Of a DNA stretch of 64,000 nucleotides, positions 41,249-59,935 are shown one piece after another; position 1 is the stretch's first letter, and every line of letters starts with the position of its first letter. The notes beneath the pieces were generated by a model. The model saw nothing but the letters and a program-made list of their open reading frames with translations. It did no database searches and had not been told where the DNA came from. Origin of the DNA: Bacteroidales bacterium (GTDB lineage Bacteria; Bacteroidota; Bacteroidia; Bacteroidales; UBA1402); NCBI GenBank assembly GCA_012718945.1, contig JAAYBL010000144.1:8945-72944 (forward strand), in the 5' to 3' direction. Position numbers and translations under genes: made by a program.

Positions 41249-41256
41249 TATCTTTG
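41249..41256 (+). promoter_or_regulatory. Putative -7 box TATCTTTG for the LuxR-type regulator
   Basis: tatctttg matches TAnnTTTG and lies 7 nt upstream of ATG 41263. The track start at 41254 is the TTG of this box. Confidence 0.4.
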
Positions 41257-41262
41257 CCAATC

Positions 41263-41859
41263 ATGGTAGCCCAACCCTCCAAGCCCCGAATCATCATCGT
41301 CGATGGCAACATTCTGTCCGCCATCGGATTAAAAGGCATGTTGGAAACTGTTGCTCCCGGAATATCTGTTGTAATCTGCCAAAACCTGGAAGTGCTGCAG
41401 GTCTTGCCCCCAGGACATACCGTCCACTATTTCGTGGCTAGCAGCCAACTATTTGCCTGTTATGAATACTTTCTGCCATTGGCAGACAAGGTCATCGCTT
41501 TGATTCAAGGAAACGCCGTCAGCCTTCATGGGTTCAGAACCCTGGATGTCACATCGACCGAATCCTCCTTTCTCAAACACCTCCTGGCCGTCCACAATCA
41601 GGGCCATGGCGAACAAGGTCACCGCCACCCGGACCGCGTCTGCCCGGATACCGAGCTCACGCGACGGGAAAAGGACGTGTTGCGAAAAGCCGTACTGGGA
41701 TTTCAAAACAAGGAAATGGCCGATCAATTTCATGTAGAGGTGACCACCATCGTCTTTCACCGTAAGAACATAGCCAAGAAGCTAGGCTCCAAGTCTTTGT
41801 CGAGTTGGACCATCCATGCTGTGGTCAACGGACTGGTGCAGATAGAAGAAATAGCCTGA
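41263..41859 (+). CDS. LuxR/FixJ-type HTH regulator with a degenerate (pseudo-)receiver domain
   Basis: C-terminal LuxR HTH LTRREKDVLRKAVLGFQNKEMADQFHVEVTTIVFHRKNIAKKLG. The N-terminal receiver-like fold starts RIIIVDGN (not DD). I see no Asp at the expected phospho-acceptor position (HTVHYFVASSQ). Confidence 0.75.
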   Translation: MVAQPSKPRIIIVDGNILSAIGLKGMLETVAPGISVVICQNLEVLQVLPPGHTVHYFVASSQLFACYEYFLPLADKVIALIQGNAVSLHGFRTLDVTSTESSFLKHLLAVHNQGHGEQGHRHPDRVCPDTELTRREKDVLRKAVLGFQNKEMADQFHVEVTTIVFHRKNIAKKLGSKSLSSWTIHAVVNGLVQIEEIA

Positions 41860-41860
41860 T

Positions 41861-42862
41861 TTATTTACGGCTGCTGTACTTGTCAAGTACCACGGCACCT
41901 ATGATAACGAAGCCCTTGATGACCTGTTGCCAAAAGGGTGATACATCCAGGAGCACCAGGCCATTGTTGAGCACGCCGATAATCAAGGCCCCCACCACCG
42001 TACCGGCAATTGAGCCCTTACCCCCACTCATGGAAGTACCCCCGATGACGACAGCGGCAATGGCATCCAATTCATACCCACTTCCGGCGTTGGGCTGAGC
42101 CGAATCAAGGCGGGCTGTCACCAGCAAACCAGCCACAGCTGCCAACACCCCAGCCAACGTATAGACCAGCAAGAGCACTTTATTGACATTGATACCCGAC
42201 AAGAGGCTGGCTTTTTCGTTGCCCCCAATGGCATACATGTAACGCCCTGTCCTGGTCTTCTTCATGTAAAAAGCAAAGAATACCACCACCAGACCGGCCA
42301 CCCACACCGGCATTGGCACGCCCAGCAACCAACCCGTACCCAGATAAGCGAAGCCTTTACCCAAACCGGTCAAAGGAAATCCATTGGTGTACAGCATGGT
42401 CAAACCTCTGGCTATGGTCAACATACCCAAGGTGGCCACAAACGGCGGCAACTTGAAACGGGTAATCATCCAGCCATTGAACGCGCCCAACAATCCACCG
42501 ACCAGTAGGGCTGCCAGGATAGCTCCCCAAAACGTGAAACCGACGTATACGCCCATTCCTTCCAGCACCAGACCGTCTTTCATCAACCCAGCCGCCACAG
42601 CTCCACTCAATGCCAGCACAGAGCCAACAGAGAGGTCAATACCGCCTGTGAGGATAACCAGGGTCATCCCTACTGAGATGCAGAGATTGACGGATACCTG
42701 GCGCATGACATTAAAGAAATTGTCGGTTGTGGCAAAGTTGTCCGACAGAAACGTCATGGCCACCATCATGATCAACAACGCCAACAGGGGTTTGATGATG
42801 GGTTGTCCAACGGTTTTTTTCAGGATAAGTGTATTCATGGTTAGTTGATTATCGTGGGACAT
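41861..42862 (-). CDS. Sugar ABC transporter permease (CUT2/RbsC-like)
   Basis: 333-aa multi-pass membrane protein with typical RbsC-family segments (GGIDLSVGS, TLGMLTIARG, IGGTSMSGGKGS). Confidence 0.9.
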   Translation of the reverse strand: MSHDNQLTMNTLILKKTVGQPIIKPLLALLIMMVAMTFLSDNFATTDNFFNVMRQVSVNLCISVGMTLVILTGGIDLSVGSVLALSGAVAAGLMKDGLVLEGMGVYVGFTFWGAILAALLVGGLLGAFNGWMITRFKLPPFVATLGMLTIARGLTMLYTNGFPLTGLGKGFAYLGTGWLLGVPMPVWVAGLVVVFFAFYMKKTRTGRYMYAIGGNEKASLLSGINVNKVLLLVYTLAGVLAAVAGLLVTARLDSAQPNAGSGYELDAIAAVVIGGTSMSGGKGSIAGTVVGALIIGVLNNGLVLLDVSPFWQQVIKGFVIIGAVVLDKYSSRK

Positions 42863-44387
42863 CTCCCTCCTTGCAACCCGGCAAAGCGGCTTTCAGGATG
42901 GCTTCTTCTGAAAAAGCGTCTTTATCGAACGTGGCTGTCAGTCGACCTTCGCAAAGGGTCAGGATACGGTCGGAAATGGCCATGATCTCGGGCAGTTCGC
43001 TGGATACCACAATGATGGCCATCCCTTCACCGGCCAGTTTATCCATCAATGCATAAATGTCGTTTTTGGCACTGATGTCGATGCCCCGGGTGGGCTCATC
43101 CAGCAATAATATACGGGGATGGGTAAGCAACCACTTGGAAAGCACCACTTTCTGCTGGTTACCCCCACTAAGCTGGCCAGCCTGCTGACAGCAAGAATGC
43201 GATTTGATGTGAAGGCTATTCCTGTACGACTCGGCTTCTTTATGTTCCTTGCGTTGGCTCAACAGTCCATAGGTGAGAAATTGCCACAGGGAAGCCAGAC
43301 TGGTGTTTTGTTCCAACGTCATGCCTAGCACCAGGCCGTCCCGCTTCCTATCTTCAGGGATCAATGCCAACCCGTGATGGATGGCTTCTTTTGGCGTCCT
43401 GATGGCAACAGGCTGTCCATCAATACTAATCGCACCCTTCACTCGTTTTCCGTGAACGCCGAAAAGCGCTTCCAACAATTCTGTCCGTCCAGCCCCCATG
43501 AGACCATAGATACCCAACACCTCCGATGAAGAAACGGAAAATGATATATCCTGCAGGATAAACTGTCCGGGATGAGCCGCATCTTCCAGGCTAAGTCCCT
43601 CTACCGACAATCGTTCGGGTCCTATGGCGTGTTGGGTCTTGACAAAAAAATCCTTGGTGTCCCTACCTACCATGTACCTGACCAGGTCGGCCAGACAGAG
43701 GCTGTCGGCTGTGCCTTCATGCACAAAACGACCGTCCCTGAATACAGTGACATAATCGGCCAACAAACGGATTTCATCCATCTTGTGGGTGATATAGACA
43801 ATTCCTCTACCCTCTGCTTTAAGGCTGCATATCAGGTCGAACAACAACTCTACTTCCTTTTCAGATAGCGAGGAGGTAGGTTCGTCCATAATGAGGACCT
43901 GAGCGTTTTTGGATAAAGCCTTGGCTATCTCCACGAGCTGCTGCTGCCCCACCCTAAGGTCGGCCACCAGTGAATCGGGGCTGGCATCAAACTGTAAGCG
44001 GTCAAGCAGTCCCTTGGCGTTGGCCTTCATCGTCGGGTAATCGATCAAACCAGTCGCATTGAGAGGTTCCCTGCCCAGGAAAATATTTTCGGCGACTGTC
44101 ATGTGTGGAACCAGATTGAGCTCCTGGTGTATCATGGCAATACCTGCCTGTTGAGCCTCGGCCACCTGAGCGAATCGCACCGGTTGGCCCTGTCTTTTCA
44201 ACGTGCCCTCATAATCGGCATACACCCCGGAAAGGATGTTCATCAAGGTAGACTTGCCGGCACCATTCTCTCCCACCAAGGCGTTGACAGCCCCGGCTCT
44301 AACCTTGAAATCGACCCCGTCGAGGGCCAACACGCCGGGAAAGCGTTTGGTCACGGCAACGGCTTCAAGCAACAGGGTTTCTGACAT
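42849..44387 (-). CDS. Sugar ABC transporter ATP-binding protein (CUT2/RbsA-like, duplicated ABC domains)
   Basis: Walker A GENGAGKST, signature-like LRVGQQQLVEIA, second signature LSGGNQQKV, Walker B LLLDEPTRGID. I start the gene at ATG 44387 (MSETLLLEAV...). It overlaps the permease gene by 14 nt. Confidence 0.9.
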   Translation of the reverse strand: MSETLLLEAVAVTKRFPGVLALDGVDFKVRAGAVNALVGENGAGKSTLMNILSGVYADYEGTLKRQGQPVRFAQVAEAQQAGIAMIHQELNLVPHMTVAENIFLGREPLNATGLIDYPTMKANAKGLLDRLQFDASPDSLVADLRVGQQQLVEIAKALSKNAQVLIMDEPTSSLSEKEVELLFDLICSLKAEGRGIVYITHKMDEIRLLADYVTVFRDGRFVHEGTADSLCLADLVRYMVGRDTKDFFVKTQHAIGPERLSVEGLSLEDAAHPGQFILQDISFSVSSSEVLGIYGLMGAGRTELLEALFGVHGKRVKGAISIDGQPVAIRTPKEAIHHGLALIPEDRKRDGLVLGMTLEQNTSLASLWQFLTYGLLSQRKEHKEAESYRNSLHIKSHSCCQQAGQLSGGNQQKVVLSKWLLTHPRILLLDEPTRGIDISAKNDIYALMDKLAGEGMAIIVVSSELPEIMAISDRILTLCEGRLTATFDKDAFSEEAILKAALPGCKEGDVPR

Positions 44388-44406
44388 GAGCAAGGGGGCT
44401 AATGAG

Positions 44407-45057
44407 TTACTGGGGGGACGTGGAGTCGGCTGTTTTGACCAGACTGAAGGGGACAATATCGAGTGTTGCGGACAGGGATTGACCTGGATCAAGCGCCACA
44501 GCGCCCACCCAAACCAGGCGATCGCCCACGCAAAGGCAGTCCAGCAATGGTTGTACCACCTTTTCTAGCAGTCGCTTGTTTAAACTGGCTGAAGCAGCGT
44601 TGTAATCCATGGTGTTGGCAAAATCGTTGGCTTGAAACCAACCCGTTGAAGCGACTGCCGTGTTGCCGAAAAGATGCTTCACAGGCAATCGACCTTGTCG
44701 GTTATCGGGTAAGGCCAGCACGATGAATTGGTCGGTCAATCCTGTAATCGTGGATGTTCCCTTGAGCAGATAGTGTACCTTACCCCCAATGTCGGTCACA
44801 AGGCCATCTTCTGGTGTCAAGGCGGCTATCTGTTCGATGGGCAAGGCTTTATCGAGCGTCTGGTTCAGGTCTTTGTCCCAATGGTATGTCACCAGCTGTT
44901 CAGGGCTAAAGGTTTCCAACAAAAGGGCTTCCCTGTGTTTATCCAAGGGTTCGATATAGAAGGCCAACCGCAGCGCAATCAAGCCTACGATAACCAATAG
45001 GAGGATTTTCAGGGGGCGTTTCCAGGCCATACGAATAAGGTGTTGATACGCAATCAT
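44407..45057 (-). CDS. Membrane-anchored accessory protein, DUF2291-like (assignment from gene context and size, not verified)
   Basis: About 207-216 aa with a single N-terminal TM helix (ILLLVIVGLIALRLAF). It sits between the binding-protein gene and the ATPase gene, which is where DUF2291 genes occur in CUT2 loci. Confidence 0.45.
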   Translation of the reverse strand: MIAYQHLIRMAWKRPLKILLLVIVGLIALRLAFYIEPLDKHREALLLETFSPEQLVTYHWDKDLNQTLDKALPIEQIAALTPEDGLVTDIGGKVHYLLKGTSTITGLTDQFIVLALPDNRQGRLPVKHLFGNTAVASTGWFQANDFANTMDYNAASASLNKRLLEKVVQPLLDCLCVGDRLVWVGAVALDPGQSLSATLDIVPFSLVKTADSTSPQ

Positions 45058-45070
45058 GCGCAGGGGTTAC

Positions 45071-46024
45071 TCAGTGAGTTTCCTTTTTTCCGTACGATCC
45101 GTAAGCATCCACGTTTTCGGCAGTCACCAGGTCGACAGCCACCGGCATTTTCTGCTGAAAATCACGTTGACCTTTCAGGTACTTATCAGCCAGCATGGCG
45201 GCGGTGTTGGCCATGGTTTTGGGAAATTGCATACCGGTAGCCTTGATCTTGCCTTCCTTGATGGCCTGAATCACATCGTCAGCACCGTCAAATCCATAAA
45301 TCTGTACATCGGCAGCTTTACCGGCAGCCAATACAGCCTGGTAAGCGCCCATGGCCATGGCGTCGTTGCCACAGAAGATGGCATTGACTGTTGGATGAGC
45401 CTGCAACATGGATTCGGTCACTTCCATAGCCTTGTTCCGGTCGAAATCGGCGCTTTGCTGAGCCAGCATCGTAATGTCAGGGTATTGATCAACCACACTG
45501 TGAAAGCCCTTGGACCGGTTCCAGGTGTTGTTGTCACCCACCAGGCCCAACAATTCGACGTACGTACCCTTCCCATTTAAATTGGCCACAAACGCTTGCC
45601 CGAGGGCTACGCAACCCGAATAATTATCGGAAAGAATCTGGACTGTGGCACATTCTGTGTCGTTTATTTCCCTGTCCATACAGAAAACCGGGACACCGGC
45701 AGCCTTGGCCGCCCGCACATTGACGATGGAGCCATTGGCATCGGTGGGATTAAACAAAATGGCTTTGTAGTCGGAAGCCAGGATGTTATCAAAATGCTCC
45801 GTCTCTTTGGAGGGATTGTTCTGTGAATCAAAAAGCACGGCCTCATAGCCCAATTCCCTGGCTTTTTCAATGGCTGTCTCGCCCAACACGACAAACCAGG
45901 GATTGTTGAGGGTGGATATTACCACAGCGACCTTGTCTTTCGCTTGTTTTTTACTCGTGGTACAGCCAACAAGGACTAACAAACCAAAAGCCAACAGCAG
46001 GCTGTCTCTCAAAAAATGTTGCAT
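45071..46024 (-). CDS. Sugar ABC transporter substrate-binding lipoprotein (RbsB-like, periplasmic-binding-protein type I)
   Basis: Lipobox LVLVGC. The PBP-I fold is recognisable ([35 protein letters not shown]). Confidence 0.85.
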
Positions 46025-46036
46025 GGTCGTCGGTAT

Positions 46037-47455
46037 TTAATGGTGAACGTACATTTCCCATCCCAGATAACTGCTCACTGCCTCTTCAATAATGGCGGAA
46101 ACACTGCCTCTCGTCATGGCGACATGGTGCTCGAAGCCGTTCTTGCACATGTATTTGAGGAGCTTTTGCAGGTTGTCAACCTCCGTAACGGCGATGCAAC
46201 CATCCATACCGTAAGGATCGTTGGTGAAACGACCTTCACCCAAATAAGACTTGATCAGGCCAAAGTTGTCGTCGGTGGAGATGCGGAAGAAGGTGAAAGG
46301 CCCTTGGGTGACTTTCCCTTTCACGGCGCCAAAGGTGTTGGTACTGCCAAGCACGCTACCCAATACGCCCAAGGTACCGAGTTCCAATTCATTTTGCACA
46401 AAACTTTTCGGGAAATTGCCACAATGGGTGCACACACATTTGTTCCTATCTTCGGCAAAGTTGTTGTTCCAGTCCAGCAAGGCAGGAGGCGTGCCTGATG
46501 CCAGCATGAGGGTGTACATGGAAACGGCACCGGCAATGTCCACTTCACAGGCACTGGGTTTAAGCTGTTCGCCCATCATGCTCATGCTCACGCAAGCAGC
46601 GCAACCATAATTTTTTTCCAGGGAATCCCAACATTGGACGGCTGTAGCATCGATCTCGTTTTCGGCCACCCAATCATCAACGGCAAGACCGAAAGCGGCT
46701 TGCAGGGCCAACTTGTCTGCATAGGCTGCAGGCACTTTTGCGTAGGCTCTGATGGCATCAAGGCGTTCCTTAAGCCTTGGCGAAGTTTTATCCAATTTAC
46801 CAGCGGCGCCCAGGATTTCAGACAGGTCGACAGGAACCACCGTAATACCGGTGGCTTGCAGGATTTTCTCACTGGCCCTGCAGGTCTGGAAACCGGCCGG
46901 CCTGGCACCGATGGCACCAATGCGAGCCTTGCGCAATCCATTCACCACCCTACATACGGCGGCAAAATAATCCAAATCCTGCTTGAGCGTATCACTGTGG
47001 ATGGAATAGGTGTGAAACGTCGTGTCCGTGAACGGAATGTTGTACTGATACAGGTTGTTGCAGACAGACAGTTTGCCGCAGAAGGCGTCTCTGCGTTTAT
47101 CCAGGGTCACTTTGTCGTTTTCATCGTCACAGGCTTGTACCAGCACCGGCACGTTCAACTCAGACAGGCTGATGGCGTTGATGATACCAATCTCGAATCC
47201 GAAATTGGGTAAAGAGACGATGATGCCGTCTATCTGGTCTTTGTGAGCCCTGAACAAGGCGGCGCATTTTTTTGCATCCTCCCTGGTTTCGATGGAACCG
47301 GTGGGTGTTTCTGCCGGATCAAGGACAACATACTGGTAACCTTTGTCTGTCAAGGTCTTCAGTAAAGTAGCCCTGACATCCTCAGCTAAGGCAGAGTTGA
47401 AGTAATTGCGGGTACCAATGATGATACCGAAGGTCAAGGTGTGTTTGTAAGGCAT
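46037..47455 (-). CDS. L-fucose/L-arabinose isomerase family protein (substrate unknown)
   Basis: 472 aa. The N-terminal Rossmann-like FucI-type domain (FGIIIGTRNYF...IIVSLPNFG) and the C-terminal domain resemble the short FucI-like family. Recognition by eye only. Confidence 0.7.
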   Translation of the reverse strand: MPYKHTLTFGIIIGTRNYFNSALAEDVRATLLKTLTDKGYQYVVLDPAETPTGSIETREDAKKCAALFRAHKDQIDGIIVSLPNFGFEIGIINAISLSELNVPVLVQACDDENDKVTLDKRRDAFCGKLSVCNNLYQYNIPFTDTTFHTYSIHSDTLKQDLDYFAAVCRVVNGLRKARIGAIGARPAGFQTCRASEKILQATGITVVPVDLSEILGAAGKLDKTSPRLKERLDAIRAYAKVPAAYADKLALQAAFGLAVDDWVAENEIDATAVQCWDSLEKNYGCAACVSMSMMGEQLKPSACEVDIAGAVSMYTLMLASGTPPALLDWNNNFAEDRNKCVCTHCGNFPKSFVQNELELGTLGVLGSVLGSTNTFGAVKGKVTQGPFTFFRISTDDNFGLIKSYLGEGRFTNDPYGMDGCIAVTEVDNLQKLLKYMCKNGFEHHVAMTRGSVSAIIEEAVSSYLGWEMYVHH

Positions 47456-47491
47456 GGTATTAGATGTTAATGTGTGTTCTTCCGTGGGTGG

Positions 47492-48973
47492 CTAGGGGTT
47501 GATCAGCGATACCGCCTTGCGCCAACCGGCATAATTTCGTTCTCGGTCCTGCGCTTTCATTGTGGGTCTCACCAGTTGACGGTTTGAAGTCATCGTGAGT
47601 AGCGGTTGCAAACTTTGCCGTCGCCCCAACGCCAGGGCATTCATCAGAACAGCGCCATAGGCCGACGCCTCTTTGATGGCACTACGTCTGACAGGTACGT
47701 TGAGCATATCGGCCTGGAACTGTAGCAGAAAGGCATTGCACACGGCTCCCCCATCTACCCTCAATTCTTTAAGGGACAATCCGGCGTTGGCCACCATCAC
47801 ATCTACCAGGTCCTTGATCTGATAGGCGATGGCCTCCAGGGCTGCCCTGGCAATGTGGCGTTTATTGGTCCCCCTATCCATGCCACACAAGATGGCCCTG
47901 GCTTCGTTGTTCCACCAGGGGGCACCCAGGCCTGTAAAAGCTGGCACCAGGTAAACACCCTTATTATCAGAAATGGCAGTAGCCAGCACCTCACTTTCAG
48001 AAGGATCGGAGAGCATGCCCATGTCGTGGGTAAGCCATTGCAAGGTGTCGCCCGTGCAGTGGATATTGCCCTCATAGGCATAGTAAACCTCACCCAAGGC
48101 TGCGAAACCCACGGAGGTCACCAGTCCATCGGAAGGTGCCAGGGGTTCCGGACCAATGTTGACCATTACGGACGACCCTGTACCTACTGTCGCTTTACCC
48201 ATACCGGCTTCCACACAAAGCTGGCCAACCAAGGCTCCGTGAGAATCGCCCATCACCCCGGCTATGGGGATGAAATGATCCAACAACCCGTTAAGGTTGG
48301 TTTCTCCATAGACGACATCACAAGGCCTGACTTCTGGCAACATGTTGAGAGGAATATTGAACAGATTCAACAGTTCGCTGTCCCAATCGAGGGTGTGAAT
48401 GTTGAACAACAGCGTACGCGAGGCATTGGTGACATCGGTGGCATGTACCCGACGGTCGGTCAGGTTCCACATCAGCCAGGTATCCATGGTTCCCATCAAC
48501 AAGAGCCCTTCATTGGCTTGCTCCCTGACTCCTGGCACCTGATTGAGGAGCCAGCTCACCCCACTTGCCGAAAAATAGGGATCCAACATAAGACCAGTCT
48601 TGGCCCTGACCATGTCGTTGTGACCAGCTTGTCTAAGGTTGTTGCAAAGTGCAGATCCTCGTTGGCATTGCCAAACCACGGCGTTGTACACAGGCAATCC
48701 GGTTTCCTTGTTCCAAACCACCACGGTTTCCCGCTGGTTGGTTATGGCAACGGAGGTAATTTCGTTTGCCAGTACATTGGTCGAAAAAAGTAGTTCTCTT
48801 ATGGCGGCGTCCAGATTGCGCAGGATTTCCACAGGGTCGTGTTCCACCCATCCAGGTTCGGGGTAATACTGTTCATGCTCAACAGCAGATTGTGCGGTGA
48901 GCGTTTCTTTGTCATCAAAAAGTAGGACCTTGGTGGCCGATGTGCTCTGATCTATGGCTAGTGTATAGGACAT
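47492..48973 (-). CDS. FGGY-family carbohydrate kinase, glycerol-kinase-like subfamily
   Basis: Segments AIDQSTSATKVLLFD and YPEPGWVEHDPVEI (GlpK-like), plus C-terminal FGGY motifs (VDGGAVCNAFLLQFQADM). 493 aa. Confidence 0.9.
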   Translation of the reverse strand: MSYTLAIDQSTSATKVLLFDDKETLTAQSAVEHEQYYPEPGWVEHDPVEILRNLDAAIRELLFSTNVLANEITSVAITNQRETVVVWNKETGLPVYNAVVWQCQRGSALCNNLRQAGHNDMVRAKTGLMLDPYFSASGVSWLLNQVPGVREQANEGLLLMGTMDTWLMWNLTDRRVHATDVTNASRTLLFNIHTLDWDSELLNLFNIPLNMLPEVRPCDVVYGETNLNGLLDHFIPIAGVMGDSHGALVGQLCVEAGMGKATVGTGSSVMVNIGPEPLAPSDGLVTSVGFAALGEVYYAYEGNIHCTGDTLQWLTHDMGMLSDPSESEVLATAISDNKGVYLVPAFTGLGAPWWNNEARAILCGMDRGTNKRHIARAALEAIAYQIKDLVDVMVANAGLSLKELRVDGGAVCNAFLLQFQADMLNVPVRRSAIKEASAYGAVLMNALALGRRQSLQPLLTMTSNRQLVRPTMKAQDRERNYAGWRKAVSLINP

Positions 48974-48985
48974 GTTTGATTTGTT

Positions 48986-49924
48986 TCAAAGGTTTATCCA
49001 ATCGACAACGGTCTTGACAAGACTTTCTGCATCAAGCCCGTAATGACGAAAGAGTTGGGTGGAACTACCCGTCGCCGCGTTTTCATCCGGAATGCCAACC
49101 AGCTTCATAGGCACCGGTGCCTGCTGGACAACAACCTCGGCTACGGCAGCTCCCAAGCCGCCAAAGATACTATGTTCTTCCACGGTCAGCAAGCGCCCGG
49201 TTTCCCTGGCAGCATTGACGATGGCTTCCACATCCAATGGTTTAATGGTGTGCATATCGAGCACCCTGGCCTTTATACCCATGGCTGCCAATTGCTTACC
49301 GGCTTCCAGACAATGCCAGACGGTCTCTCCGGTCCCGATCAGCGTCAAGGCATCGCCATCCAGAAGACGGTTAGCTTTTCCGAACTCATAAGGTGCATTG
49401 GTTGAATTGTACACATCGGGCACAGGATTACGCCCCACCCTGATGTATACAGGTCTTGGGTGCTTCAACAGGTCATCGACGAGCTGTCTGGTCTGGTATA
49501 TATCGCAGGGCAACTCCACGCTTAGACCAGGGAACGTCCGCAAAACGGCCAGGTCGTGGAGGCTGTGGTGGGTGGCTCCCAAGGCGCCGTAGCTGACACC
49601 TCCGCTGACACCAAGAATGGCTACATTGAATCCTGAATACGCCACATCGACCTTAACTTGTTCCAGGGATCTGGCCACGTAAAAACAGGCTGGTCCACAG
49701 ACAAAGACCTTCTTTCCCGCCGAAGCCAAACCGGCGGACACACCAACGGCGTTTTGCTCGGCAATGCCGATTTCGACAAACTGTTGAGGCAATTCCTTGG
49801 CAAAGTCGGTCAGGGTAACCGAACCTCTGGCATCGGTGGAAACAGCGATGATATCCCTGTCAAGCCTGGCATTGGCCAGCAATGCATCGGTAAAGGCCTT
49901 GCGGCATGGTATGGTCTGGGTCAT
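48986..49924 (-). CDS. Transketolase family protein, C-terminal (pyrimidine-binding) subunit
   Basis: Segments FVEIGIAEQNAVGVSAGLA and GATHHSLHDLA. 312 aa. Its start overlaps the stop of the N-terminal subunit gene by 4 nt (ATGA). Confidence 0.9.
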   Translation of the reverse strand: MTQTIPCRKAFTDALLANARLDRDIIAVSTDARGSVTLTDFAKELPQQFVEIGIAEQNAVGVSAGLASAGKKVFVCGPACFYVARSLEQVKVDVAYSGFNVAILGVSGGVSYGALGATHHSLHDLAVLRTFPGLSVELPCDIYQTRQLVDDLLKHPRPVYIRVGRNPVPDVYNSTNAPYEFGKANRLLDGDALTLIGTGETVWHCLEAGKQLAAMGIKARVLDMHTIKPLDVEAIVNAARETGRLLTVEEHSIFGGLGAAVAEVVVQQAPVPMKLVGIPDENAATGSSTQLFRHYGLDAESLVKTVVDWINL

Positions 49925-50772
49925 GGTTTCTCCGTTAAGGTTTGTATCCTGGCGTCTATCTCAGAGAGTGCCAAGGCCAATTGTTCGTTGGTCGGTACGC
50001 CGTGATGCCAGCTGGCAACATTTTCCATGTAGGAAACGCCCTTACCCTTGGTCGTATGGGCAATGATCATGGTGGGCTTACCAACCGGCTGCCAATTGTC
50101 CAGGCAATCAACCAGGGCGGCCATGTCATTGCCATCCACTTCTTTCACATCCCATCCCAGGCTTTCCCAACGCTGGCGCATGGGTTCCAGGGTCATAACC
50201 GATTCGGTGGGACCGCTGATTTGCAAACCGTTTCTGTCGATGAAGGCAATCAGGTTGTCCAAGTGGTAGTGTGAGGCTGTCATGGCGGCTTCGTACACAG
50301 AGCCTTCACCCTGCTCGCCATCGCCCATCAGGACAAAGGTCCGGTAGGATTTGGCATCCATTTTTGCTGCCAACGCCATGCCCACACCCACCGATAAGCC
50401 ATGGCCGAGAGCGCCACTGTTCAACTCAATGCCAGGTACTTTTCGGGTGGGATGGCCTGCCAATATGGATTGGAAAGTTCCATACGTATCCAACCAACTA
50501 TCCGGAAAGAAGTTGGCCTTCGCCAATGTGCAATAAAAGCTTTCTACGCTATGTCCTTTGCTGAGGATGAAACGATCTCTATCCGGCCAATCGGGTTGGT
50601 CGCTGCGGTAGCGCATGGCATGGAAGTACAGGACGGTCAGGATGTCGGTGGCTGAAAGGGAGCCTCCTGTGTGACCGGCTTTGGCGTTAAAAATCACTTG
50701 CAGGCATCGCCTGCGAATTTCTTCTGCCTTCAGCCTTAGTCGCCGAATAGAGTCCGGCTGCTGGTGGTTCAT
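49921..50772 (-). CDS. Transketolase, N-terminal (thiamine-diphosphate-binding) subunit
   Basis: Segments GHTGGSLS and SKGH, with TPP motif VLMGDGEQGEGSVYEA. 283 aa. Confidence 0.9.
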   Translation of the reverse strand: MNHQQPDSIRRLRLKAEEIRRRCLQVIFNAKAGHTGGSLSATDILTVLYFHAMRYRSDQPDWPDRDRFILSKGHSVESFYCTLAKANFFPDSWLDTYGTFQSILAGHPTRKVPGIELNSGALGHGLSVGVGMALAAKMDAKSYRTFVLMGDGEQGEGSVYEAAMTASHYHLDNLIAFIDRNGLQISGPTESVMTLEPMRQRWESLGWDVKEVDGNDMAALVDCLDNWQPVGKPTMIIAHTTKGKGVSYMENVASWHHGVPTNEQLALALSEIDARIQTLTEKP

Positions 50773-50809: not shown

Positions 50810-50817
50810 CAAAAATA
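50810..50817 (-). promoter_or_regulatory. Putative -7 box TATTTTTG for the eight-gene transketolase/ABC operon
   Basis: The reverse complement of caaaaata matches TAnnTTTG. It lies 38 nt upstream of ATG 50772. Confidence 0.4.
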
Positions 50818-50865
50818 GAATTATAAACCAACACTTACAAACAGGTTTCCGGTCCATTAAAAGAA

Positions 50866-50891
50866 ACACCGACCTTCATCAAGGCCGGTGT
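50866..50891 (-). terminator. Terminator hairpin downstream of the padR-pspC unit
   Basis: ACACCGACCTT pairs with AAGGCCGGTGT (11 bp with one mismatch, 4-nt loop). A T-rich TTCTTTT follows on the minus strand. Confidence 0.55.
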
Positions 50892-51012: not shown

Positions 51013-52098
51013 CTACATGCACCAAGCGCCATAGTGGGAAAAAAAGCCCAAACCGGCAAAGATGATAAATGCAATACCGGCCAACCATAGGATGAGCGCT
51101 GTCCATGAAAGCCATTTAGGTGTCGGTTTCAAGTTAAGTGACCGACCGAATAGCAAGACAAACAAGCTGATGAAGGGAATGGCTATCACAAGGATCAAAC
51201 CCAGGGTAACCCAAACGGCGATGGACGGTTGAGCCATGAGTTGCTCCATGGGATAGAACCCGACAAACCAATCGCTCATAAATGTCACGCTGCCGGTGGC
51301 CATGGTAATGAGGACGAACAGTAGAACCATCAGCAGAATGAAACCAACCAGCCCGATAATGCCACTGATAAGGCCAACAATACCCTTGGCCAGGATGACA
51401 AAAAAGCGACCCAAACCGTGGCCGATGCTTCTGGCATTTTGTTCGATGTGAGAGTTGTCCACCAGGTTGCTAACCCTGCCTCTGGCTTTATCAAACTCTT
51501 CCTTGACCTTCTTTTCGATGTTGTCGATGGTCACGTCTTCGCCTTCCATTTCCAGGCGTTGCGAGGCTGTAATAGCCTCAGGAATCACAATCCAGCAGAT
51601 GATATACATCCATACACCTGTCAAACCAAAGAAGGACAGCAAAATAAATCCCAACCGGAAGAAGACCTCACTGACGCCAAAGAACTTGGACAAACCGGTG
51701 GTCACACCACCCAGGACAGCACCTTCTGGATCCCTGTACAACTTACGTCGACGCTGTTCAAAACGGGTAGAGCCATGCTCATCGTTCCTTGGCGAACCGG
51801 TGCTACCGGACATATTGTCCGAGGCATTGTCGGACGTGTTGTCGTATTGCTCGGGGCGTCCGAGGATATCAATCACCTTCTTGACGTCGGTCAATGTCAC
51901 CACTTCCCGGCGGCCTTGCATCCATTCGTTGAACAATTCGCTCATGCGGTGTTCGATATCGTTGAGCACTTCTTCGGCCGATGCTTCATCGCCCAGGTGG
52001 TGCTTTACCTCGTTAAGATACGACGTCAATGAAGCATAAGCGTCCTCGTCTATATGAAAGACCGTTCCGCCTAAATTGACACTCAAGGTTTTTTTCAT
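51013..52098 (-). CDS. PspC domain-containing membrane protein
   Basis: PspC motif KLYRDPEGAVLGGVTTGLSKFFGVSEVFFRLGFILL. Several further TM helices follow. 361 aa. Confidence 0.8.
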   Translation of the reverse strand: MKKTLSVNLGGTVFHIDEDAYASLTSYLNEVKHHLGDEASAEEVLNDIEHRMSELFNEWMQGRREVVTLTDVKKVIDILGRPEQYDNTSDNASDNMSGSTGSPRNDEHGSTRFEQRRRKLYRDPEGAVLGGVTTGLSKFFGVSEVFFRLGFILLSFFGLTGVWMYIICWIVIPEAITASQRLEMEGEDVTIDNIEKKVKEEFDKARGRVSNLVDNSHIEQNARSIGHGLGRFFVILAKGIVGLISGIIGLVGFILLMVLLFVLITMATGSVTFMSDWFVGFYPMEQLMAQPSIAVWVTLGLILVIAIPFISLFVLLFGRSLNLKPTPKWLSWTALILWLAGIAFIIFAGLGFFSHYGAWCM

Positions 52099-52131
52099 CT
52101 TATGTTGGTTTAATCGTTTTCTTGCTGTGTA

Positions 52132-52455
52132 TCAGTCGTTCAGGTGATTGATGGCGCCTGACAATTCTTTCCAGGCGGCTTCCAATTCCTGCAGATTGGC
52201 AGCACCTTCTTCAGTGAGGGAAAAATATTTGCGGGGAGGGCCCTGGGTTGATTCAACCCATTCGTAGGACAACAACCCGTCGTTTTTCAAACGGGTCAAC
52301 AAGGGATACAAGGTCCCTTCCACCACGATGAGGTGGGCGCTTTTCAGGCCTTCAATGATGTCGGAGGTGTACGAGGGTCGTTTACGGACAATCAGCAACG
52401 TACAATACTCCAAAAAGCCTTTGCGCATCTGCGATTTGATGTTTTCGATATCCAT
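52132..52455 (-). CDS. PadR family transcriptional regulator
   Basis: Winged-helix PadR pattern GFLEYCTLLIV...SYTSDIIEGL...EGTLYPLLTRLKNDGLLSYEW. About 107 aa from ATG 52455. Confidence 0.85.
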   Translation of the reverse strand: MDIENIKSQMRKGFLEYCTLLIVRKRPSYTSDIIEGLKSAHLIVVEGTLYPLLTRLKNDGLLSYEWVESTQGPPRKYFSLTEEGAANLQELEAAWKELSGAINHLND

Positions 52456-52472
52456 GCCTTTTGAATTTGCGA

Positions 52473-52480
52473 CAAAGATA
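52473..52480 (-). promoter_or_regulatory. Putative -7 box TATCTTTG for padR-pspC
   Basis: The reverse complement of caaagata matches TAnnTTTG. It lies 18 nt upstream of ATG 52455. Confidence 0.4.
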
Positions 52481-52571
52481 TGCAAAATATAGTTCCTTGC
52501 AATACATAGTAGTAATTTTTTACAAGGTACTAGGCATTTTTTTATCCGACGTGTATTATTTCAAGGTTTTC

Positions 52572-54206
52572 TTAGTCTGTTATCCTGAATTTTTGGCTCA
52601 TTCCGTTGTATTGCAGCAGATAAAGACCAGGAGACAGACCGGGCAACACCTGCAAATGAGCGGTTGACAGACAGCGGGTCACACGTTGACCGGTTAAGGA
52701 GTAAACGGTAATGACCTCACCACTGACAGGTGCCTGGAAATACAGCGTATTGGGAGCCGTATAAAGGCTGACATGGGCAGCACTTACAGGACGCTGTACG
52801 CTTGAGAGTAAGGTGACCGGCATTTCAGCCGAGGGTGCACTCAGGTAGCCATCGTTACGGGACTGAAGAGTATAGACATATGTTTGTCCAGGGGTCAAGC
52901 CATCCACCTCACCTTCGGTTTCAGGTAGGGAGTCCAGCACGTTGACCAGGTTCAGGGTAGCGCCCTCTAGGGAATAAACATTCAGTCGGTAATGTTCGGC
53001 ATAGGACGATGGCTGCCAATGGGCTGTAAAACCAGTAGCACTCAAGTTGGTAGCCGGCATGACCTGAGGTGGAAGCAGGCTGTCAACGGGAATGCCTTTG
53101 GCGTTTATGTTCACCTTTACGCTGCCTTGAATACCGCCGTCGTAAATAATCAGCGAAGCTGTGTGATCACCGGCTTGGCTCGGTTGGTAAGTCAGGCTTA
53201 GTTGATACCCACTGTTGCCCTGTGCGGCCGAAATCTCCTTGACGGCTGACTGGAATTGGGCATAATCGTCCACTTGTTCAATTAAAACAGAGAGGGGCGC
53301 ATTCAGGGAAACGCCTTTCACATAAAGCGTGCGTTGACGGACATTTCCTACAATGGTGGGACCGAAAACCAGCTCCGTCTCGTTGGTTGGCGTAGACAGG
53401 ACAGGTTTACTGGCCACATCGAGTGTGAAGGTTTGACCGGCGGATGCCCCCCACAAGTACTCAGCCAACTCGGGGTAATCAATGAAGGGGTTGCGGTTGT
53501 TTTGAATTTTGAACACCGCTTCGTTGCGGTTGGTCTCTTTGGTGCTGACAGGATCCTGTCGGTGCCAACCCATCAACAACTGGATGGCCCAGGGTTTGAG
53601 CGTGGGATACGTGTTTTGATCGACCATATAGGTGTACCGCCAGTTCAAGTTTTGGTAGCAGGTCACCATGTAAAAGTAGGTACGGGCAAAGTCGCCTTTG
53701 TAGGCATCGTCCGGTTCAAAGACCATGGCATCGGTACCATAGCCAGGAAAGATGTTTCGCCCAACGCGGGTAACACCATTGTCGAAGGTTGTGTTTCCAA
53801 CCATACCCAGGGGGTAGTTGCTTTTGGCCATGTTGGCATCGCCATCCGATGGATACAGGTGATTGATGTCAGTATAGGCGGCATTCACATCCCCACCCCA
53901 CCAGCTTTTGGGAAAGGCGTGTTCGCGGTTCATGCCCCAACTACTGGTACGTACCACGTTTGAATACATGTCCCAGATACTGCCGTCGTCCCTCACATCG
54001 GTGGTTTTGAAGAACGTCCACAAGCTGGCGTAATCGTGAACGGTATGGTTGAGCAGCAGGTTGGAGAGAGTTGTCTTGAGGGCTTCGCTCTTTTTGCCGT
54101 TGAGGACGTCGTAATAGCCGTTGGGGTTGGCCGCTTGTAAAGTAACGGACAACCAAACAACACACACCAGGAGGCAAAAGGAGCGATAATGGAACATAGT
54201 GAGCAT
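52572..54206 (-). CDS. Secreted endonuclease I family nuclease with Ig/FN3-like extension and T9SS C-terminal sorting domain
   Basis: Endonuclease I motifs NREHAFPKSWWGG and NNRNPFIDYPELAEYLWG. An FN3-like segment follows (ATGFTAHWQPSSYAEHYRLNVY...GLTPGQTYVYTLQ). C-terminal tail ITVYSLTGQRV...GLYLLQYNG...FRITD. Confidence 0.8.
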   Translation of the reverse strand: MLTMFHYRSFCLLVCVVWLSVTLQAANPNGYYDVLNGKKSEALKTTLSNLLLNHTVHDYASLWTFFKTTDVRDDGSIWDMYSNVVRTSSWGMNREHAFPKSWWGGDVNAAYTDINHLYPSDGDANMAKSNYPLGMVGNTTFDNGVTRVGRNIFPGYGTDAMVFEPDDAYKGDFARTYFYMVTCYQNLNWRYTYMVDQNTYPTLKPWAIQLLMGWHRQDPVSTKETNRNEAVFKIQNNRNPFIDYPELAEYLWGASAGQTFTLDVASKPVLSTPTNETELVFGPTIVGNVRQRTLYVKGVSLNAPLSVLIEQVDDYAQFQSAVKEISAAQGNSGYQLSLTYQPSQAGDHTASLIIYDGGIQGSVKVNINAKGIPVDSLLPPQVMPATNLSATGFTAHWQPSSYAEHYRLNVYSLEGATLNLVNVLDSLPETEGEVDGLTPGQTYVYTLQSRNDGYLSAPSAEMPVTLLSSVQRPVSAAHVSLYTAPNTLYFQAPVSGEVITVYSLTGQRVTRCLSTAHLQVLPGLSPGLYLLQYNGMSQKFRITD

Positions 54207-54242
54207 AAAAAAGCCATCCGTTTAGCGAACTAAACGGATGGC
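54207..54242 (-). terminator. Strong hairpin plus T-run between the choice-of-anchor-J-like gene and the 544-aa endonuclease gene
   Basis: GCCATCCGTTTAG and CTAAACGGATGGC form a perfect 13-bp stem with loop CGAA (54213-54242). On the minus strand TTTTTT follows and runs directly into ATG 54206. Confidence 0.7.
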
Positions 54243-54255
54243 CGTGAATGAGTGG

Positions 54256-56472
54256 TTAAAGAACGATCTTAGTCGTTGTTTTGCCAACGCGTACCAGGTA
54301 CAACTGGCTTGGTGTCAGCGATAGGTTGTTGTTGCCTTCGTGTGCGACAACGGTGGTCACCTTGCGACCGAGCACGTTGTACACCTCGATGACCTGGCCT
54401 TGTTTGGCTACTACCGTCAATTGACCGTTGCTACCAAAGACGTTCAGCGAAGCTTGAGCAGCTGGACGTTTGGGCAGTGCCGTGGTGACATTGATGTCAG
54501 TCAGGCTGCGCGGGAAGAATTGAACAGTACCGTTATATTCAAGGGCCAGGGCGACATAATTAACGGCACCAACGGGGATGTTGGTCTCGGCTGTCATGTA
54601 ATCCAAGCCTGTATAGTTCGTACGCAACACAAGGGTGTCCTTGCCATCGGTGAAGTTGAAATTGGTTTTGGCTGTACCCCAGGTTGTTTTTCCACTGACG
54701 TTGGTCAATTGGTTGAGACGGATCAGCATGGATTCGTACTTATCCTTATTAGCCTTGTACTCAGCTATGGTCAATTCGACAGGAGTCAGGGTATTGTTTG
54801 AGCTGTTGACAGTGGCATTCTTCACAGGAATGAGTTCCATCACACCGCCGTAGGTATCAAAGGTTCCCGTCAGGTTCTTAACGCCATCGCCTACGTTTAG
54901 GTCAGTTGTAATCAAACCCTTGGTGTCGTAAATCAACACACCACCCTTGCTATCCTGGAAGTACTTGGAGTTTCCTGAACTGTGTTTGAAGCTCATGATT
55001 GCTTCGCCGGTAACGCGGTAGATCGTGGTTTCATCGGTGGGGGCAGCATCATAAGCAGCACGCAAAGCACCCAGGTCGGCTACTTCAACGGCTTGCCAGG
55101 CTTTACCCGTCACTGTAGCGGTGATGGCTTCGGCCAATCCGCCACCAGAAATGGTGATAACAGCGGTATCATTACCGACAGCGGTAGGCACATAATTGAC
55201 CTGGAGTTCATAACCGGCTGAGTCGATGACATCTGCGGCGGGTACGGAGGTAATCTTGGTATTGAAGGCTGTACCGACGGTATTGACCAGTGCAACGGTC
55301 AGATTACCGGTCAGATTGGTACCGGTAAGGGTCAGTTGCTTGGAAACCGTAGCACCGACTTCGGCATCAAAAGCAGCACCGGTCAGTGCGGCAACGGGAG
55401 TGTTGCTGGCAATCTGACGTTGTGAGATCACTAAACTATCAAGGAAGAAACGTCCTTTGGAAGCTTGGTTACCAGCAATGGTAAGAACCGTTTGGGATGT
55501 CCCACCAGTCACCTCAACGGGGCCATATGATACCAATACATAGGGTGTATCAATAGGCAAGCCAGATACGGTGGTGGCTTCCACTCCGTTGACTAACAGT
55601 TTTATTGTGGGACTGTCGTTCCTCCAGGCTGCAGCCTTGAAGGATACATAGAACTTACCACCGTCTTTTGACAAATCCATGGACGGCGTAACAATCGTCC
55701 CCAACCCCGAAGAAGAACCCAATTTGACGACACCTCCGGCTTGATTGACTTTGGTTCCACTCCATCCTGTTGTCTGGGTGTACGTATCCATCGTAGTGCC
55801 CACGTCTGTACCATCGGGAGAATTCAAGGTTCCTTTAGTGAATTTGTCAAAGTTTTCGCTCAAAACTATGGTGGGTTGAACAACGGGTTCATCAACCACT
55901 GATTCGACCAGCACATCCTTGATTTCCCAAGTGGCAGCATCGTTAATGGCTGCAGAGTCGGATTTGTAACGGAAAGCAAAGCGTACATTTTCCTTACCAG
56001 CATAGGCATCAAGGGCTATCAAACCCGAGCTGACAAAATTGTAATCATTGCCAGTACCATAGGTGAAATCAAACTTCGTCCACTTGGAGGAGTCAATGTC
56101 ACCACCTGTGTAACTATCGGTGACCCACAGTGTCAAGTTCCAGGTGGGATACAAGCCGTATTTATGGCAATTCTGAAAACTCAGGTTGGCTTTCTGGACA
56201 TCGGAGAAGTCCATAGAAGGAGACACCAACCAGTCTTCGTTCAACTTAGGAGCACTGGCATAGCCCGATATCTTGGCAAAGCCGGTGCCACTGAAAGATG
56301 ACCAGGCCCAAACTTGGTCACCCTTTACTGAAACAGGGGTGAAACTTCCTAATGAAGTGGCAAAAGTTTCCGAAAGTAAGGTGGCAGCCGAAGCGCCGGA
56401 AGCCATAAAAAGCAGGCCGGCTGTGACGACCAGCCATTTTTTAAAACGTAGAGTAGCATTTTTCATAGACAC
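54256..56472 (-). CDS. T9SS-sorted surface protein: N-terminal choice-of-anchor-J-like module, central beta-rich region, OB-like (DUF5689-like) module, T9SS C-terminal domain
   Basis: Signal peptide present. The ETFATSLGSF...NEDWLVSP...RFAFRYK...ATWEIKDVLVE module is paralogous to the C-terminus of the 57740-59905 lipoprotein. The segment IYRVTGEAIM...GGVLIYD...VGDGVKNLTGTFDTYGGVMEL resembles the OB-like modules of extracellular nucleases. C-terminal tail IEVYNVLGRKV...LYLVRVGKTTTKIVL. Confidence 0.6.
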   Translation of the reverse strand: MSMKNATLRFKKWLVVTAGLLFMASGASAATLLSETFATSLGSFTPVSVKGDQVWAWSSFSGTGFAKISGYASAPKLNEDWLVSPSMDFSDVQKANLSFQNCHKYGLYPTWNLTLWVTDSYTGGDIDSSKWTKFDFTYGTGNDYNFVSSGLIALDAYAGKENVRFAFRYKSDSAAINDAATWEIKDVLVESVVDEPVVQPTIVLSENFDKFTKGTLNSPDGTDVGTTMDTYTQTTGWSGTKVNQAGGVVKLGSSSGLGTIVTPSMDLSKDGGKFYVSFKAAAWRNDSPTIKLLVNGVEATTVSGLPIDTPYVLVSYGPVEVTGGTSQTVLTIAGNQASKGRFFLDSLVISQRQIASNTPVAALTGAAFDAEVGATVSKQLTLTGTNLTGNLTVALVNTVGTAFNTKITSVPAADVIDSAGYELQVNYVPTAVGNDTAVITISGGGLAEAITATVTGKAWQAVEVADLGALRAAYDAAPTDETTIYRVTGEAIMSFKHSSGNSKYFQDSKGGVLIYDTKGLITTDLNVGDGVKNLTGTFDTYGGVMELIPVKNATVNSSNNTLTPVELTIAEYKANKDKYESMLIRLNQLTNVSGKTTWGTAKTNFNFTDGKDTLVLRTNYTGLDYMTAETNIPVGAVNYVALALEYNGTVQFFPRSLTDINVTTALPKRPAAQASLNVFGSNGQLTVVAKQGQVIEVYNVLGRKVTTVVAHEGNNNLSLTPSQLYLVRVGKTTTKIVL

Positions 56473-56507
56473 TTGTTTTTAGATGAGACACCCAGTAAAT
56501 CCAAATC

Positions 56508-56515
56508 CAAAAGTA
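56508..56515 (-). promoter_or_regulatory. Putative -7 box TACTTTTG for the choice-of-anchor-J-like gene
   Basis: The reverse complement of caaaagta matches TAnnTTTG. It lies 36 nt upstream of ATG 56472, in a 140-nt AT-rich spacer. Confidence 0.4.
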
Positions 56516-56612
56516 CACAATAATAAATAAATATACAGTGATGTGTTGTGACAAAATTCCTAAAAAACAGTTACATCCATCCAATTAACACAAAAGAGCC
56601 GTCAAGGCACAT

Positions 56613-57692
56613 TTAATTGTCTTTCACGATATAAAGGGGCGTTGTACCGATCATCAGAAGAAGGTATCCGGTTTGAGGAATATCCAATCTGTAAGGATTG
56701 TTCATCAGTGTAGTCGCAAGCAATCGGCGTCCGAGAAGGTCAAATACCTGCAAACGTTGACCTGCTTTAGCGGTTACCCACCAGCAACAATCGCTGCAAT
56801 AGGCCTTTGGACGATTGTCATCCATCGGTCGCTCCAAGCCCACCGAGCCGGTCGGCAAAAAGGCGTAACCAATGGAGTCACCCCAAATGTATTCCACCAG
56901 ACGGGGTTCATCTATGTAAGGGTTGCGGTTGTGTTGATATTGGCTGTATATGACCTCGTTGCGGTTGATCTCCTTGGGACTGACCGGATCGTTGCGGTGC
57001 CAGGCCAGCAGCAGCTTCACACCCCAGTTGCTCAAGGCCGGATAGCTGTTTCCGGCCAACATCTCGGTATTGGCATTGCTCTTCCAGGATGCCACCACAT
57101 TCTCGTAGCGGGTCACCATGTAGAAGTACGTTCTGGCCATATCGCCCTTCAACTCATCGGCCGGTTCAAAGACGGTCAGGGTTGCCCCGCTTTCGGTGGA
57201 GGTGCCCCATTTGGAATAGTTGTTGGCAGAGGTGCCCGTAACTGTTTGCACGGTCCCGAAGGGAGTGTTGCCACGTTTGCCATTGACCCATTTGTCGGAG
57301 GGGTACAGGTGAAACAAATCCGTGTACATGGGGTATCCGTCATCAAACCAGCTTTTGGGAAACGAATGCTCCCTGTTGTAAAACTGGTTTTCACTAGTGC
57401 CACCACTGCCCCTGTCCTGATCATCCCCAAACACATAGTTGGTGATATTGGAATAGATGTCCCAAACCTTGCCGTCAGGTCGTTTGTCCGTTTTTTGAAA
57501 GGCTGTCCACAGGTCACTGTATGACAATTCCGTATGTCCTTTGATGGTATTGTACAATGCCGTCTTCAGCGCTTGACCGCTCAATCCCTGCGTAGCATCG
57601 TAATACCCTTGAGGTGGGCTGGCCGTTGCAACGCTGACTGCGATCAACAACCAACCCAACACGAGTATGCGGTTTTTCATATGCTGGATCAT
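56613..57692 (-). CDS. Secreted endonuclease I family nuclease (short form) with T9SS-like C-terminal domain
   Basis: Motifs NREHSFPKSWF and HNRNPYIDEPRLVEYIWG. Signal peptide present (the ATG at 57680 is an alternative start). C-terminal tail LQVFDLLGRRL...GYLLLMIG...YIVKDN. Confidence 0.8.
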   Translation of the reverse strand: MIQHMKNRILVLGWLLIAVSVATASPPQGYYDATQGLSGQALKTALYNTIKGHTELSYSDLWTAFQKTDKRPDGKVWDIYSNITNYVFGDDQDRGSGGTSENQFYNREHSFPKSWFDDGYPMYTDLFHLYPSDKWVNGKRGNTPFGTVQTVTGTSANNYSKWGTSTESGATLTVFEPADELKGDMARTYFYMVTRYENVVASWKSNANTEMLAGNSYPALSNWGVKLLLAWHRNDPVSPKEINRNEVIYSQYQHNRNPYIDEPRLVEYIWGDSIGYAFLPTGSVGLERPMDDNRPKAYCSDCCWWVTAKAGQRLQVFDLLGRRLLATTLMNNPYRLDIPQTGYLLLMIGTTPLYIVKDN

Positions 57693-57739
57693 TCAAGAAC
57701 AGGCGAACAAAATGGCGACGTTTTTACCACTGGCTCACA

Positions 57740-59905: not shown

Positions 59906-59935
59906 ATGGAGGATTGTTTAGTTGTCTGAAGTTGG

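Follow-up and report, generated by a model that had tools for sequence, protein, structure and literature searches.

A Bacteroidales operon with a split transketolase and a FucI-like isomerase probably serves the import and non-oxidative breakdown of D-apiose

The 64,000-nucleotide (nt) stretch analysed here (contig JAAYBL010000144.1, positions 8,945 to 72,944; hereafter the window) belongs to a metagenome-assembled Bacteroidales genome of 2.96 Mb in 316 contigs that is 89.8% complete (hereafter the host genome). On the minus strand, positions 41861-50772 of the window hold an operon-like block of eight co-directional open reading frames (ORFs) with short gaps or overlaps, whose families were assigned with Pfam and NCBIfam. 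The genes and families agreed with those of an initial annotation made from the sequence alone, and the two overlaps described in it were confirmed: the transketolase halves share an ATGA at 49921-49924, and the ATPase and permease genes overlap by 14 nt at 42849-42862. The genes are:

49921..50772, minus strand: transketolase N-terminal half, AptA-like, 283 aa (Transketolase_N)
48986..49924, minus strand: transketolase C-terminal half, AptB-like, 312 aa (Transket_pyr and Transketolase_C)
47492..48973, minus strand: GlpK-like FGGY kinase, presumed apulose kinase, 493 aa (FGGY_N and FGGY_C)
46037..47455, minus strand: AraA/FucI-fold isomerase, presumed D-apiose isomerase, 472 aa (Fucose_iso_C as the sole Pfam match)
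45071..46024, minus strand: CUT2-family substrate-binding lipoprotein, 317 aa, lipobox LVGC (Peripla_BP_4)
44407..45057, minus strand: DUF2291 protein with an N-terminal membrane anchor and an oligonucleotide/oligosaccharide-binding (OB) fold, 207-216 aa (start 45057 or 45030)
42849..44387, minus strand: ATP-binding cassette (ABC) ATPase with two nucleotide-binding domains, 512 aa from ATG (two ABC_tran)
41861..42862, minus strand: ABC permease, 333 aa (BPD_transp_2)

Judging by the sequence, the ATPase gene most likely starts at ATG 44387 (512 aa) rather than at TTG 44492, which leaves a 19-nt gap behind the DUF2291 gene. The start of the DUF2291 gene may lie at 45030, as comparison with the closest relative of the locus (L004) suggested; its product has a membrane anchor without a lipobox cysteine.

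D-apiose, a sugar of plant cell walls, is a signature component of rhamnogalacturonan-II (RG-II) and apiogalacturonan. The initial annotation had described the operon as a self-contained module for import and catabolism in which an isomerase, a kinase and a dedicated split transketolase act in succession, and the gene content supported both the module and this logic. However, it had called the sugar pathway unassigned, and this has to be revised, as the transketolase branch of D-apiose catabolism, mentioned there as an example, is the best assignment. Our analysis suggests that the operon is quite probably a D-apiose utilisation module for import and non-oxidative (transketolase) breakdown of the sugar (PWY-8089).

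In such a module, free D-apiose would be taken up by the importer, made up of the lipoprotein binding protein, the membrane-anchored DUF2291 protein, the tandem ATPase and the permease, and its source would be pectins such as RG-II, from which apiosidases encoded elsewhere in the genome would free it. In the cytoplasm, the 472-aa isomerase with the AraA/FucI fold would turn D-apiose into the ketose apulose, and the GlpK-like kinase would phosphorylate a hydroxymethyl arm of the glycerol-like branch of apulose to give apulose 4-phosphate. The split transketolase would then move a two-carbon ketol unit onto glyceraldehyde 3-phosphate, yielding xylulose 5-phosphate and dihydroxyacetone phosphate. 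PWY-8089 runs through these reactions. What we observed directly is the gene content of the operon, its conserved linkage, its kinship to validated apiose clusters and the mutual exclusion of isomerase types among such clusters; we infer all of the catalytic steps, what the binding protein binds and what the DUF2291 protein does, the chemistry of the steps being that of the published pathway.

The transketolase pathway for D-apiose was reportedly described in Pectobacterium by Carter et al. in 2018 and is said to comprise ApsI, AplK and AptA/AptB together with a CUT2 importer. The operon resembles the Pectobacterium clusters in having a split transketolase beside a GlpK-like FGGY kinase, as well as a binding protein, a DUF2291 protein, a tandem ATPase and a permease. 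The identities to the Pectobacterium types are 52% for AptA, 37% for AptB (the transketolase halves were compared with the AptA and AptB types of apiose clusters), 39% for the kinase, 38% for the binding protein, 44% for the ATPase and 41% for the permease. The operon differs from these clusters in its gene order, in having no adjoining SorC regulator and in its kinase, which seems to fall into a separate GlpK-like clade. Moreover, the Pectobacterium clusters encode a 332-aa PF01261 triosephosphate isomerase (TIM) barrel, whereas the operon encodes the 472-aa AraA/FucI-fold protein.

A D-apiose cluster has also been described in Escherichia coli ST131/STc14 and E. fergusonii, with SE15 ECSF_RS02670-02715 as the reference, and in the available text of that paper, E. 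coli, E. fergusonii and P. carotovorum that carry such a cluster are reported to grow on D-apiose, and the non-oxidative route is cited as MetaCyc PWY-8089 (PMC13001218). In SE15 the order of genes is short-chain dehydrogenase/reductase (SDR), SDR, permease, ATPase, DUF2291, binding protein, FGGY kinase aplK, regulator, aptA and aptB. The operon proteins are 48% (AptA), 38% (AptB), 38% (AplK), 32% (binding protein), 41% (ATPase) and 42% (permease) identical to those of SE15. The E. coli cluster differs from the operon in lacking an isomerase and in encoding two SDR oxidoreductases. According to the available text, the P. carotovorum cluster also encodes the isomerase apsI, which is missing in E. 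coli, and the authors propose that the SDRs replace ApsI there (PMC13001218).

The split transketolase of the operon is the only split one found in the host genome, and a separate full-length tkt gene is located on contig C5. This supports the initial annotation, in which the operon enzyme was taken to be distinct from the housekeeping transketolase.

The linkage of the genes was examined in 10-kb neighbourhoods of the nearest 80 isomerase-seeded, 80 binding-protein-seeded and 80 AplK-seeded loci and in a sample of 301 Enterobacterales-order genomes (hereafter the order sample). As the locus sets were seeded with the cluster genes themselves, the counts given below are not unbiased samples. 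Both transketolase halves were present in 71 of the 80 isomerase-seeded loci, mostly in the order tktN-tktC-kinase-isomerase, and 78 of these loci came from Bacteroidota (Bacteroidaceae 25, Prevotellaceae 22, Rikenellaceae 9, and others). Carriage of the four catabolic genes is common among gut and rumen Bacteroidales, and a function is proposed here where databases give none. Cultured organisms with the block also include Limibacterium fermenti me31 and Flaviramulus basaltis DSM 18180. Copies from gut Bacteroidaceae, Prevotellaceae and Rikenellaceae, for example that of Phocaeicola sartorii DSM 21941 (L022), share this gene order with the operon, and their isomerases and kinases are 70-81% and 53-65% identical to those of the operon, respectively. 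They differ from it in having mostly a GRP/RbsU-type permease (33/80) instead of an ABC importer (4/80), and often a DeoR regulator (29/80) and a 3,4-dihydroxy-2-butanone 4-phosphate (DHBP)-synthase-like gene (25/80). The latter, a RibB paralogue (PF00926, 256 bits), lies between the regulator and the transketolase genes in P. sartorii (L022:4954-5568); the window of the operon contains no such gene. The GRP/RbsU-type permease that replaces the ABC importer at L022:11438-13311 is often followed by a 282-aa Peripla_BP_4 protein (19/80).

Among the 80 closest relatives of the binding protein, which are 65-93% identical to it, 43 came from Bacteroidota, 13 from Verrucomicrobiota, 8 from Planctomycetota, 4 from Ignavibacteriota and the rest from other groups. 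Within 10 kb of them, the split transketolase was found in 60, the isomerase in 56 and DUF2291 in 69 of the 80 loci. Judged from these neighbourhoods, the ABC/DUF2291 importer is the usual transporter partner of this pathway across phyla, and it seems to have been exchanged for another one in the gut families. The initial annotation had regarded the transporter as unusual for the phylum and possibly acquired horizontally. This view was not supported: GC content at third codon positions (GC3) was 0.585-0.635 in the operon and 0.591 ± 0.043 in the 29 other ORFs of the window, and over half of the nearest binding-protein relatives are from Bacteroidota; yet the binding protein is the sole Peripla_BP_4 protein found in the host genome. 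Recent horizontal transfer is not supported on the same grounds, as neither GC nor GC3 deviated.

The isomerase was recognised by Fucose_iso_C with 113.4 bits against a Pfam cut-off of 29.3. Its predicted structure (predicted local distance difference test score 89.2, predicted template-modelling score 0.91) gave template-modelling scores (TM-scores) of 0.81-0.83 to AraA and 0.71-0.78 to FucI and D-arabinose isomerase. The protein is like AraA and FucI in its predicted fold and in the Fucose_iso_C domain, and unlike them in sequence (10-15% identity in structural alignments) and genomic context. Residues E304, D306, D328, H344, E442, H443 and H444 were invariant in 22 isomerase sequences. Homology searches returned no functional name for the protein, the public annotation being only 'L-fucose isomerase-like'. 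A literature search, outside of which the original Pectobacterium pathway paper lay, found no paper tying a fucose-isomerase-like protein to apiose, and on apiose isomerase only the E. coli paper turned up (PMC13001218).

In the order sample, locus L307 encodes, behind its kinase, a 332-aa PF01261 TIM-barrel protein. Nine named Pectobacterium records, P. carotovorum DSM 30168 among them, have proteins that match it at 97-100% identity. These records encode a binding protein, DUF2291, an ATPase, a permease, aptA, aptB, a kinase and the PF01261 TIM barrel, and the FucI-like gene was present in none of the nine clusters. Because the TIM barrel is the sole isomerase-like gene in these clusters and the available text of PMC13001218 places apsI there, the PF01261 gene is by inference ApsI, which would make the isomerase of the operon a non-homologous substitute. 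We had also considered that the FucI-like gene is ApsI itself, because Enterobacterales clusters with it lack the SDR pair, and dropped this idea, as the Pectobacterium clusters carry the TIM barrel. When the host genome was searched with the Pectobacterium-type TIM protein, the best match showed 29% identity (41 bits) and was located on contig C314 beside another FGGY kinase.

The three kinds of first-step genes hardly ever occurred together. Among the 265 loci with both transketolase halves, 163 had only the FucI-like gene, 54 only the TIM barrel and 31 only the SDR pair; one locus had the FucI-like gene together with SDRs, none had it together with the TIM barrel, and no type was detected in 16. 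In the sets that had not been seeded with an isomerase, the AplK-seeded loci comprised 35 FucI-like, 31 SDR, 1 with both and 6 with none, the binding-protein-seeded loci 52 FucI-like and 6 with none, and the order sample 5 FucI-like, 1 TIM and 4 with none. Vibrio salinus (L150) was the sole fetched locus with the FucI-like isomerase and the SDR pair, which lie there beside aptA, aptB and aplK. Moreover, the Enterobacterales locus L305 is 76-82% identical to the Pectobacterium type in its binding protein, ATPase, permease, AptA, AptB and regulator (59% in its kinase), and there a FucI-like gene, 48% identical to that of the operon, occupies the position of the TIM barrel. In a tree of 40 representative isomerases, the clade of the operon comprised Bacteroidales, Ignavibacteriota and KSB1 and was sister, with 99 in the Shimodaira-Hasegawa-like approximate likelihood ratio test (SH-aLRT), to an Enterobacterales/Vibrio clade of FucI-like proteins; the true FucI of the host genome (590 aa) was a very long, far outgroup.

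Five loci of the Enterobacterales order (L305, L306, L308, L309 and L312) combine the FucI-like isomerase with kinases only 41-47% identical to Citrobacter AplK, and in the kinase tree that of L305 groups with the Pectobacterium-type kinase. Such combinations imply that the isomerase type and the kinase type assort independently.

These results lead to a broader proposal, to which we give an even chance of being correct: the 472-aa AraA/FucI-fold protein would represent a second family of D-apiose isomerases, which outside Pectobacterium and Actinomycetota has taken the place of the TIM-barrel ApsI in most apiose clusters. Its carriers would include human-gut Bacteroides, Phocaeicola, Prevotella and Alistipes, and its partner in Bacteroidota would be a kinase lineage apart from the characterised AplK clade. 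The first step of the pathway would then have three alternatives, namely the TIM barrel, the AraA/FucI-fold protein and the two SDRs, as in non-orthologous displacement. If this is true, the main route of gut Bacteroidales for pectin-derived apiose begins with an enzyme that nobody has assayed. The pathway itself has already been published; the operon would differ from it in the enzyme of the first step.

The surroundings of the clusters and the host genome point to pectin. Apiosidase-like genes of PF13204 were found within 10 kb in 6/80 isomerase-seeded, 9/79 binding-protein-seeded and 4/80 AplK-seeded loci, and genes of glycoside hydrolase (GH) families GH28 and GH88 flank Prevotella copies of the cluster. 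On contig C171 of the host genome, GH78, a GH140-type apiosidase (379 bits), GH95 and GH28 are adjacent and form an RG-II-type glycosidase cluster, which we take to resemble the RG-II loci of Bacteroides. The same locus (L396, G000:C171:1-14000) contains beside the glycosidases a DUF1537-type acid-sugar kinase, a PdxA-like dehydrogenase and an iron alcohol dehydrogenase, which may serve another RG-II sugar.

The importer raises the question whether the sugar could be ribose. If it were a ribose or broad-pentose system of the RbsABC kind, the enzymes would act on ribose or on another rare sugar that it brings in. The best NCBIfam names for its binding protein, permease and ATPase were indeed RbsB, RbsC and XylG/RbsA; however, the scores of 236.3, 338.5 and 542.8 bits were all under the equivalog cut-offs of 337, 398 and 745. 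The nearest solved relative of the binding protein was Thermotoga maritima TM0958 (2FN8, 369 bits; 2FN9, 349 bits), ahead of 5IBQ. The latter and 4RY0 scored 198 bits and are labelled in the database only as 'probable ribose ABC transporter', although we assume them to be an apiose-binding protein. The initial annotation had pointed to a very similar gene set in T. maritima, and this stood as far as the nearest solved relatives are concerned, since that of the DUF2291 protein was TM0957 (2F4I; E 3e-32, TM-score 0.66/0.77, OB fold), which adjoins TM0958; the wider neighbourhood presumably contains transketolase, kinase and isomerase genes. The T. maritima pair is like the operon in its DUF2291 protein and binding-protein kin and unlike it in that TM0958 is described as ribose-binding. 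According to the available text of PMC2630998, TM0958 was crystallised with ribose and assigned as ribose-binding by similarity and operon context. This naming by similarity tells against the ribose reading, and the position next to TM0957 implies that TM0958 belongs to the same transporter type as the operon importer. A literature search on DUF2291 gave nothing useful. Moreover, no ribokinase exceeded the cut-off in the 89.8%-complete host genome (best score 60 bits vs 299.65), ribose use requires neither an isomerase nor a dedicated transketolase, and the binding-protein group is tied to both of these genes in most of its loci (60/80 and 56/80). A ribose-type importer as the explanation is thus very unlikely.

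Another possibility is that the FucI-like clusters degrade a sugar other than apiose (a tetrose or tetrulose, another branched sugar or a rare pentose) and have nothing but the transketolase logic in common with the apiose pathway. This would fit the isomerase, which is not homologous to the Pectobacterium-type enzyme, the kinase outside the AplK clade, the identity of only 37-52% to validated AptA/AptB and the extra DHBP-synthase-like gene in 25/80 gut Bacteroidales loci. Against it, L305 pairs the FucI-like gene with six parts that are 76-82% identical to those of Pectobacterium, the FucI-like gene and the TIM barrel occurred together in 0/265 loci, apiosidase-like and pectinase neighbours recurred in three independently seeded sets, and an apiosidase belongs to the RG-II-type glycosidase cluster of the host genome. 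We consider this alternative unlikely. It is extremely unlikely that the kinase simply serves as the cell's glycerol kinase, that the transketolase is a surplus housekeeping enzyme and that the gene order is fortuitous, because the linkage is conserved: the four-gene block is kept in 71/80 isomerase-seeded loci. Admittedly, the kinase just exceeded the cut-off of the GlpK equivalog TIGR01311 (593.1 vs 590.35 bits). However, canonical GlpK proteins (E. coli, Citrobacter, Dyadobacter and a Parabacteroides) scored 748-767 bits and the cluster kinases 486-604 bits, a genome with both kinds has a canonical GlpK (750 bits) and a separate cluster kinase (586 bits), and the host genome encodes its full-length transketolase elsewhere. 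Relatives of the cluster kinase with 586-604 bits straddle the GlpK cut-off, and as a result automatic annotation will label only part of them as glycerol kinase. In 4/5 Bacteroidales genomes checked, the cluster kinase is the only GlpK-like gene. UniProt entry Q6D5T8 is presumably a Pectobacterium protein. A preprint identifies it as the apulose kinase.

Several observations weigh against the assignment to D-apiose. We found no assay of any enzyme or binding protein of the FucI-like variant. The isomerase shares no homology with the protein that takes its place in the Pectobacterium clusters and had no sequence match in PDB at E 0.001. The kinase is 46.9% identical to E. coli GlpK vs 37-39% to the AplK types, and it is the sole GlpK-like gene found in the host genome, so that a role in glycerol use is possible. 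The operon kinase clade (SH-aLRT 98) stands outside the proteobacterial/actinobacterial AplK clade (100) in a quick mixture-model tree whose deep nodes are unsettled. Among solved structures, TM0958 and not 5IBQ comes closest to the binding protein, apiosidase neighbours occur in only a minority of loci, and the seeding of the locus sets, as stated above, also calls for caution.

Contigs from RNA (metatranscriptome) libraries of two studies bridged four of the seven gene junctions (ATPase/DUF2291, DUF2291/binding protein, binding protein/isomerase and isomerase/kinase); such contigs can hold DNA, and the bridging is a weak hint and no proof of a single transcript. The pieces from an anaerobic digester were about 95-96% identical, one of them spanning 3607 nt (43711-47317), and those from a soil run had 0-1 differences. 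No bridging contig was among the matches listed for the permease/ATPase, kinase/transketolase-C and transketolase-C/N junctions. In the spacer between the DUF2291 and ATPase genes (44402-44406), the RNA-library contigs of the approximately 95% identical strain contain a 1-nt insertion and a 1-nt deletion.

Two features were located upstream of the first gene of the operon:

50810..50841, minus strand: candidate Bacteroidota-type promoter (-33 TTTG at 50838-50841, 20-nt spacer, -7 box TATTTTTG at 50810-50817)
50866..50891, minus strand: terminator-like hairpin of 11 pairs followed by a T run, marking the end of the upstream pspC gene and separating the operon from it

The -7 box is positioned 37 nt before the first ATG of the operon. 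The initial annotation had described this box as the only one in the block; it is present, but a second TAnnTTTG lies at 49162-49169 within the transketolase C gene. Across the window, TAnnTTTG was found 32 times vs 34.5 expected, which is no enrichment, and the full -33/-7 pattern matched twice vs 1.16 expected. The promoter therefore remains a candidate that is suggested by its position and not by the motif match alone. Scans for sigma-70 promoters and terminators within the operon gave sites no more numerous than in shuffled sequence. As the initial annotation had stated, no regulator of the LacI, DeoR or ROK type is encoded within the operon, none being among the Pfam families of the eight genes. 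The DeoR regulator of the P. sartorii cluster, used as a query, had no match in the 89.8%-complete host genome.

Putative regulators lie on both sides of the operon. Downstream, a 201-aa protein whose C-terminal part is a LuxR/GerE helix-turn-helix and whose N-terminal part matched no recognised domain is encoded on the plus strand (41254-41859); its gene converges on the operon, with its stop 1 nt from the permease stop codon, and in the closest relative, L004, it is likewise found beside the operon (81% identity). Directly upstream, positions 51013-52485 of the minus strand encode a PadR-family regulator and a 361-aa PspC-domain membrane protein, and this pair adjoins the cluster in L007 too. 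Farther along the window, positions 52572-63580 are occupied by a locus that is opened by an endonuclease I protein with a type IX secretion system tail, the match to the sorting domain being weak.

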